A stretch of DNA of 64,000 nt from Escherichia coli (lineage in GTDB: Bacteria > Pseudomonadota > Gammaproteobacteria > Enterobacterales > Enterobacteriaceae): assembly GCF_024502345.1 (NCBI RefSeq), contig NZ_JALDNN010000001.1. One strand, written 5' to 3'. The notes below the pieces were generated by a model. That model had not been told where the DNA came from. It was given only the letters and a program-made list of their open reading frames with translations, and searched no databases. A program made the position numbers and the translations under genes. Below are positions 50,310-52,181 of the stretch, piece by piece (positions within the stretch are counted from its first letter, which is position 1; each line of letters opens with the position of its first letter).

Positions 50310-52181
50310 TTATCTACGCATGAATGCGTATTCTGATTGTGGTTGTGCGACGTAATGCCCCGGCCCGACGCATTGCAACGAGACGGCTGCCACCTCTTCG
50401 CCACGCAGATGAATATTGCTGGGAAGATCGTCCGACAGCAGTACACGCTGCGGTCGTTGTCGGGACGGTTCCGCGACCGGAACTGCCGCCAGTAATTTAC
50501 GCGTATAAGGATGCTGCGGGTTTTCGAAGACCGCGCGCCGTGGACCAATTTCAACAATTTGCCCGAGATACATCACCGCCACACGATGACTAATCCGCTC
50601 TACCACGGCCATATCGTGGGAGATAAACAGATACGCAATGCCGAAATCACGCTGGAGATCGAGCAACAAGTTGATAATCTGCCCGCGAATAGAAACATCC
50701 AGCGCCGAAACGGCTTCGTCGGCAATGATCACTTTTGGATTCAATGCCAACGCGCGAGCAATGCAGATGCGCTGGCGCTGACCGCCGGAAAACTCATGCG
50801 GGTAACGCCAGGCATGTTCAGGTAACAGGCCCACGCGCTCCAGCAACCACGCAACGCGTGCAGCCGCGTCTTTACCTGGCAATAAACCGTGTACACGCAG
50901 CGGTTCGATAATCGAATCACCGATGGTCTGACGTGGGTCCAGCGAAGCGTAAGGGTCCTGAAAAATAAACTGAATATCCCGGCGCAATGCCTGAAGTTTG
51001 CCGGGTGACAAGGTATCGATTCTCTGACCGTTAAAGATAATTTCGCCGCCCTGCGATTCGACCAGGCGCAGCAACGCCCGCCCGGTAGTGGATTTACCGC
51101 TGCCAGACTCACCAACCAGCGATAGCGTTTCGCCAGGCCAGAGATCAAAACTGACTTTCTCAACGGCATGCACTTCCCGCGTTACGCGATTCAACAAACC
51201 GCTGCGCAAAGGGAAACGGGTGACCAGATTACGCACCCGTAAAACAGGTTCGCCATCCACCACCGTTTTCTGCTCGATGGGGGGTTCCTGTTTCGCTGGA
51301 TGTTCAAGCGATATCAACGGGAAACGTCGGGGATAATCTAACCCTTTCATCGCACCAAGTTGCGGAACAGCAGCTAACAGCGCACGGGTGTAAGGATGTT
51401 GCGGTGCATGAAAAATCTGTTCGACGGTACCCGTTTCCACCGCCTCGCCCTGATACATCACCAGTACCCGATCGGCAATCTCTGCCACCACGCCCATATC
51501 GTGAGTGATAAAGATAACGCCCATCGACATCTCTTTTTGCAATACTTTGATTAATTGCAGGATCTGCGCCTGAATAGTGACATCCAGCGCGGTGGTTGGC
51601 TCATCGGCAATCAGCACCGCCGGGCGGCATGACAGCGCCATCGCAATCATCACTCGCTGGCGCATCCCGCCAGAGAGTTGATGCGGATAACGTGAAAGAA
51701 TGGTTTGTGCCTCAGGAATGCGTACCTGATCCAGCATCCGCTTCGCCTCGACCATCGCTTCTTCACGACTGGCGTTCTGATGCAGACGAATTGATTCGGC
51801 AATCTGTTCACCCACAGTAAATACCGGGTTCAGCGATGTCATCGGCTCCTGAAATATCATCGCCATATCCGCACCGCGAACATGGCGCATTTGTGCAGCG
51901 CTCTGCTCGCTAAGTTCAATCACTTCGCGACTGCGCCGCTGCAACAGCATTTTATCGCACTGTACTAAACCGCCCGCCTGTTCCAACAGGCGCATCAATG
52001 CCAACGCAGTCACTGACTTACCGGAGCCGGATTCGCCAACAATTGCCAGCGTCTCACCGCGTTGCAGACTAAAAGAGAGATTGCGGACCGCAGCTATTTT
52101 CTGCTGGTCCTGCATAAAGGCAATATTCAGATTTTCAACCGCCAGCACATTACCGGCATCAAGTTCATCACTGTGTGGCAA
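50310..52181 (-). CDS. gsiA: glutathione ABC transporter ATPase (two fused ABC domains)
   Basis: ORF track 50310..52289; two Walker A motifs (GESGSGKS twice); the N-terminus recalled for K-12 (MPHSDELD…) corresponds here to a TTG codon at 52179..52181. Confidence 0.88.

Follow-up and report, generated by a model that had tools for sequence, protein, structure and literature searches.

The gsiA gene, coding for the ATPase subunit of the GsiABCD importer, is with high confidence translated from a UUG codon at positions 52181..52179 of the minus strand, preceded by a Shine-Dalgarno (SD) sequence, AAGGGG, embedded in the last codons of iaaA; the product has 623 residues, and 14 nt of the coding sequence are shared with iaaA. 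All positions refer to the window, i.e., the whole 64,000-nt stretch of Escherichia coli DNA that was analysed. The gsiA coding sequence, 623 codons and a stop, spans 50310..52181 (minus strand), as delimited by the match to the NCBIfam profile NF007613 and by the RefSeq coordinates, and its TTG initiation codon at 52179..52181 (minus) is in frame with gsiA and is also the RefSeq start. The iaaA coding sequence, 321 codons and a stop, spans 52168..53133 (minus); RefSeq and the profile NF007589 place its ATG at 53133, not at the ATG 53142 of the ORF track, and its TGA stop codon at 52168..52170 (minus) was read directly as well as from the translation of the iaaA frame. The SD occupies 52188..52193 (minus), forms a duplex of -7.8 kcal/mol with the 3' end of 16S rRNA, and is separated from the TTG by the 6-nt spacer ACACCG at 52182..52187 (minus).

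Read on the minus strand, the 3' end of the iaaA frame runs CGT GAA AAA GGG GAC ACC GTT GCC ACA CAG TGA, and the same bases in the gsiA frame give AAG GGG ACA CCG TTG CCA CAC AGT GAT GAA CTT; both frames agree with the translations and with the mechanical ORF list. From the AAA codon (Lys314; 52192..52194, minus), at which eight relatives have a TAA stop, iaaA reads eight codons on to the UGA at 52170..52168, and iaaA and gsiA thus share the 14 nt at 52168..52181 (minus), in the sequence as in RefSeq. The longest ORF in the gsiA frame opens with the ATG at 52289 and has 659 codons, as against 623 codons from the TTG to the end at 50310. An earlier note made from the same DNA had placed the gsiA start at the TTG at 52179..52181, and this is borne out by RefSeq, by the SD, by the cross-genus comparison, by NF007613 and by tetracycline-inhibited ribosome profiling (TetRP). 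Its placing of the iaaA end at 52168, with an overlap of 14 nt, is confirmed by the minus-strand reading and by RefSeq. The view taken there of the 659-aa frame as an over-extension agrees with the in-frame stops present in relatives, with the weak SD of that frame and with the match to NF007613 along 1-623/623.

Both the TTG start and the overlap are already known from the curated annotation and from published tables, and their novelty is nil. The earlier note named the curated K-12 annotation as a check, and it gives the same TTG, the same 623 aa and the same 14-nt overlap: in K-12 (yliA, b0829; U00096.3/NC_000913.3, RefSeq PGAP) the gsiA start, its length and the overlap are all as in the window. 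The two GsiA proteins, that of the window and that of MG1655, differ in two residues besides the initiator, and neither difference is relevant to the start or to the overlap. Seven RefSeq records of E. coli were inspected, namely that of K-12 MG1655, one whose junction region is 100% identical to that of the window, the match furthest from it (97% identity) and those of four more strains that are divergent or variant. The RefSeq/PGAP annotation of every one of the seven gives an iaaA of 966 nt, a gsiA of 1872 nt, an overlap of 14 nt and a start equivalent to window position 52181, and the junction DNA was read directly in each of them (7/7). A 601-nt query covering the junction matched 5425 of 5426 complete E. 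coli genomes, with the genes annotated as iaaA (beta-aspartyl-peptidase) and gsiA, and the shorter query of 56 nt centred on the junction was 100% identical in 5132/5422 complete genomes, the remainder differing by one or two bases. Over these 601 nt, strain E2865 is among many with 100% identity to the window.

Two observations on variation within E. coli can be added here. The residues in which the window GsiA departs from the K-12 protein lie in ELSEQSAAQ (ELSEQNAAQ in K-12) and AKQEPPIEQ (AKQAPPIEQ in K-12), indicating an E. coli other than K-12 as the origin of the window. At the position equivalent to window 52193, E. coli SCU-176 (locus L085) has GAA AGA GGGG in place of GAA AAA GGGG, a variant that changes Lys314 of IaaA to Arg and simultaneously lengthens the gsiA SD to GAGGGG.

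Residues 1-623 of GsiA match positions 1-623/623 of NF007613, the GsiA equivalog profile, with 1378.8 bits against a cutoff of 1077, and IaaA matches positions 1-321/321 of NF007589 with 714 bits. GsiA contains two tandem ABC ATPase domains of the Dpp/Opp type, residues 12-281 and 308-575, both matching Rv1281c (8j5q_D); its first half matches DppD/OppD and its second half DppF/OppF. The gene order in RefSeq tables is iaaA, gsiA, gsiB. The glutathione import activity of GsiABCD was described for K-12 in literature cited in PMC10355420, and the same function is predicted for the GsiABCD of the window. The program-made ORF track departs from RefSeq in the neighbouring genes as well. It over-extends iaaA by three codons at 53133..53142 (minus), adding MNT before MGKAV (RefSeq start, 53133), and it gives gsiB as a 601-aa ORF opening with TTG at 48752..50557 (minus), which is 89 codons too long and enters the 3' end of gsiA; the RefSeq start of gsiB corresponds to window position 50290, giving 512 aa and lying 19 nt after the gsiA stop.

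Experimental data on the initiation site come from Nakahigashi et al. 2016 (PMC4909307), who mapped the initiation sites of E. coli K-12 by TetRP. Row 8 of their Table S2 lists for yliA (gsiA) a new initiation site, a TTG located -33 nt from the 2006 start, which itself corresponds to the GTG at window 52148. Ribosome-profiling start data had been the other check proposed in the earlier note, and the TetRP peak is indeed at the TTG (PMC4909307). According to Table S3 of the same paper, the 2014 K-12 record shifted the gsiA start from 866776 to 866743 (2006 coordinates), i.e., to the TetRP site; gsiA is one of 63 genes with a 2014 re-annotation matching a TetRP peak, and it is among those with a TTG. 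Its entry is a TetRP entry without manual inspection by the authors, a reporter fusion or an N-terminal peptide, and Table S2 gives no GsiA N-terminal peptide for yliA. No gsiA entry is found among the TRAINSPOTTER table entries listed (PMC13245402) or in the accessible part of the supplements of Giess et al. 2017 (PMC5576327), and a literature search on the gsiA start codon and on ybiK together with yliA brought nothing relevant. An N-terminal peptide of IaaA is listed in supplementary file 2 of PMC13245402.

An in-frame TTG taken alone is not unlikely by chance, and its significance here derives from the SD, from the conservation of a start codon across genera and from the published initiation-site profiling. 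UUG starts about 3% of E. coli genes (10.1101/063800) and is thus a minority choice, not an unusual one. The TTG of gsiA has the make-up of a canonical SD-led site, an in-frame AUG, GUG or UUG with an SD about 5-9 nt before it. All 11 in-frame candidate starts between 52289 and 52100 were scored for pairing of the preceding sequence with the 3' end of 16S rRNA, and the TTG, with AAGGGG, a 6-nt spacer and -7.8 kcal/mol, was the best of them; the corresponding duplexes of its rivals reach -1.5 kcal/mol (ATG 52289), -3.0 kcal/mol (GTG 52199) and -3.0 kcal/mol (GTG 52148).

The relatives used for comparison come from one scan of species-representative genomes, which yielded 80 loci encoding GsiA relatives, Salmonella being absent from them. 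The start codons were compared in the 26 relatives whose GsiA identity is 74% or more. A start codon is present at the position aligned with the TTG in 21 of these 26: TTG in seven, GTG in nine and ATG in five. TTG occurs in other Escherichia and in Citrobacter, Superficieibacter and Pseudocitrobacter; GTG in Enterobacter, Lelliottia, Phytobacter, Kosakonia, Pluralibacter gergoviae, Siccibacter and others; ATG in Leclercia, Cedecea and others. Five of the 26 have a different N-terminal arrangement, and the start position is thus not universal. In an alignment of 18 genomes bases 2 and 3 of the codon (TG) are invariant and base 1 is only T, G or A. An internal codon for Leu, Val or Met would be expected to appear also as CTN, TTA or GTH, and none of these was found at the gsiA start position among the 21 relatives; the interchange is thus among start codons only. 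The SD, in the form AAGGRG/AGGAG, is located at the same distance from the start in the relatives.

The same evidence bears on the other starts that could be proposed for gsiA. According to the 2006 annotation (U00096.2) translation would begin at the GTG at 52148..52146 (Val12; 52146..52148, minus), giving a protein of 612 aa and no overlap with iaaA. The curated record kept this GTG as the start until 2014 (PMC4909307 Table S3: Left(2006) 866776 vs. new 866743). A protein made from it would keep both ATPase domains, as alignments to solved homologues, like several family profiles, place the beginning of the conserved ABC ATPase core at about residues 9-13. The TetRP depth at this GTG is, however, 0/0/2.98 in the three samples as compared with 46.3/140.5/70.6 at the TTG (PMC4909307 Table S2), and its SD duplex reaches only -3.0 kcal/mol. 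In the 21 relatives the aligned codon is GTG in 14, GTA in four, GTT in two and GTC in one, as expected of an internal Val; moreover, the residues PHSDEL, located between the TTG and this GTG, are conserved at the protein level in many genera, and residues 1-11 are included in the curated profile NF007613. The 2006 start is therefore very improbable. Still less credit can be given to a start further upstream inside iaaA, either the GTG six codons before the TTG (52197..52199, minus; 629 aa, overlap of 32 nt) or the ATG opening the 659-aa mechanical ORF (52287..52289, minus; overlap of 122 nt). Both are in frame and in E. coli no stop intervenes, but the curated GsiA model (match 1-623/623) has nothing equivalent to the upstream extension, and within its search range of 60 nt around the annotated site TetRP selected the TTG (PMC4909307). 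In place of the GTG at 52199, E. albertii and a divergent Escherichia have GCG and Citrobacter has GGG, a variation that tracks silent changes in the third position of a codon for Arg in iaaA. An in-frame stop is present within 36 codons upstream of the start in 11/21 relatives and within six codons in 5/21, and the SD duplexes of -3.0 (GTG 52199) and -1.5 kcal/mol (ATG 52289) also argue against these starts. The 659-aa ORF itself was rejected, its 36 extra codons falling inside iaaA in another frame, in a stretch in which the 11 relatives have their stops. As a check of correctness, the ORF track over-calls gsiA by 36 codons, and the curated 623-aa GsiA starting with UUG is right.

With the UUG at 52181..52179 as the start, the next question concerns how ribosomes reach it. 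The SD in the final codons of iaaA would direct initiation at the UUG, and SD-driven binding would be the main route, with perhaps some coupling by termination-reinitiation from ribosomes that complete iaaA 11 nt downstream. SD-driven initiation is taken as the main mechanism because the SD is strong, a conserved masking structure is absent and relatives have a layout with +9 to +13 nt between the genes. As to the RNA structure, the minimum free energy fold of the E. coli sequence at 52130..52250 (-43.1 kcal/mol, z = -2.1) contains a long-range stem that takes in both the SD and the start. The consensus fold of 18 genomes contains zero pairs around the start and zero compensatory changes. For the SD the unpaired probability averages 0.43, as compared with 0.42 for the region, and the accessibility of the SD and the start is average. 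A conserved RNA structure masking the start was accordingly rejected, the fold being limited to E. coli and lacking support from the consensus fold, with accessibility at the average level.

Translational coupling of iaaA and gsiA, also put forward in the earlier note, is plausible. In its strict form the TTG would be reached mainly by ribosomes ending iaaA 11 nt downstream, with obligatory termination-reinitiation and GsiA production dependent on IaaA synthesis. In favour of this, the two genes are co-directional with no room between them for a promoter or a terminator, they have been reported as one operon (PMC10355420), and coupling is known for short overlaps in E. coli (PMC6728339, PMC10666635); UUG is, furthermore, a weaker start codon, which a high local concentration of ribosomes could help. 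The iaaA-gsiA pair resembles the coupled pairs described by Huber et al. 2019, 2023 and Brown and Wade 2025 (NTGA, -4; TRATG, -1; and -8) in being co-directional, in having the start before the stop and in carrying the SD inside the upstream gene. It differs from them in that the overlap has 14 nt, not 1, 4 or 8, in that the products are not subunits of one complex, and in that 9-13 nt lie between the genes in most of the relatives sampled from outside Escherichia and Citrobacter. The distance of -14 between iaaA and gsiA of K-12 is already tabulated in supplementary file 3 of Huber et al. 2023 (PMC10666635). The enriched classes of overlaps are -4, -1 and -8 (PMC10666635; review by Brown and Wade, PMC12548453), and spacings of -8 to +10 nt are treated as predictive of termination-reinitiation (PMC10666635, PMC12548453), longer overlaps being outside the scope of the tests in PMC10666635. 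The -14 spacing is thus outside both the enriched classes and the range of -8 to +10 nt, and as it exceeds the range covered in PMC10666635 the claim of coupling is lowered rather than removed. Several other points weigh against the strict form: gsiA has a strong SD that is not masked by any stable conserved structure, the layout of the relatives, +9 to +13 nt with an SD, is one of mainly independent initiation (PMC10666635), and IaaA and GsiA are classed as not belonging to one complex ('CMPLX not', PMC10666635 supplementary file 3). In E. coli a peak of intergenic distances is present at +9 to +12 nt, at which an SD fits between the genes and initiation is probably independent (PMC10666635, PMC12548453). 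Obligatory reinitiation is on balance unlikely, and SD-driven initiation at the UUG, with some possible contribution from iaaA ribosomes, is the preferred reading.

Consistent with a common transcript, no terminator-like site above chance was found between iaaA and gsiA. One terminator-like match, at 52169..52186 of the plus strand, falls antisense to the A-run and the SD and was taken as a chance consensus match. It is also worth adding that the sole good sigma-70-like match in the region, TTTACA-17-TATATT (10/12) at 53212..53240 (minus), lies between the divergent genes iaaA and moeA, about 80 nt before the start of iaaA; it is a consensus match only.

The overlap itself has a narrow distribution. 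Among the relatives sampled, the 14-nt overlap occurs only in Escherichia and Citrobacter, and in most of those outside these two genera the same SD and start are present with the end of iaaA 9-13 nt upstream. Eight sampled genomes outside Escherichia and Citrobacter, of Leclercia, Enterobacter MGH24, Lelliottia, Phytobacter, Superficieibacter, Pseudocitrobacter, Siccibacter and one MAG (loci L010, L012, L013, L014, L016, L020, L027 and L044), have the iaaA TAA directly 5' of the SD (GAA TAA GGRG), with 9-11 nt from the iaaA stop to the aligned gsiA start. At that position Escherichia and Citrobacter have GAA AAA or GAG AAA. Other short overlaps are scattered among the relatives: 1 nt in Pluralibacter sp. 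UBA7423, in two Enterobacter spp. and in Cedecea, and 4 nt in Rahnella. E. coli IaaA ends in KGDTVATQ. These eight residues are encoded at 52168..52194 (minus) by the bases that in other genera, with iaaA ending at TAA, constitute the gsiA SD, the spacer and the first gsiA codons.

Judged from the sequences compared, the KGDTVATQ tail looks like a lineage-specific C-terminal extension of IaaA arising from the loss of a stop codon, and the overlap looks like a by-product of the lost iaaA TAA, with the gsiA SD and start unmoved. An ancestral TAA located 5' of the SD would have become AAA in the Escherichia/Citrobacter lineage, creating the overlap and leaving the initiation region of gsiA unchanged; this polarity of TAA and AAA follows from parsimony over the sampled genera, Salmonella not included. 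A more far-reaching proposal is that the overlap is recent and specific to Escherichia and Citrobacter, that a single T-to-A change, TAA to AAA, moved the pair from a class of '+10 nt, independent SD' to the rare -14 class, and that this could measurably alter the GsiA:IaaA ratio. We consider the proposal tentative, somewhat short of an even chance. If true, ribosomes translating iaaA would cross the SD and start of gsiA and terminate 11 nt beyond, and the GsiA:IaaA ratio could measurably change, as compared with relatives of the Enterobacter type, via occlusion or backward reinitiation. The iaaA-gsiA pair could thus serve as a small natural test, with the overlap of -14 set against the spacing of +9 to +13 in sister genera.

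The association of the two genes extends well beyond the lineage with the overlap. An iaaA homologue is located directly upstream of the gsiA homologue in 64 of the 80 loci (L004-L083), and over those 64 the spacing varies between an overlap of 14 nt and a gap of about 270 nt. The conserved pairing of an isoaspartyl peptidase with an ABC importer of the glutathione type, seen here at the level of gene neighbourhood, hints at a functional link. Outside the Enterobacteriaceae the pairing is present in Erwinia, Pantoea, Achromobacter, Bordetella, Paraburkholderia, Variovorax, Cupriavidus and Methylobacterium.
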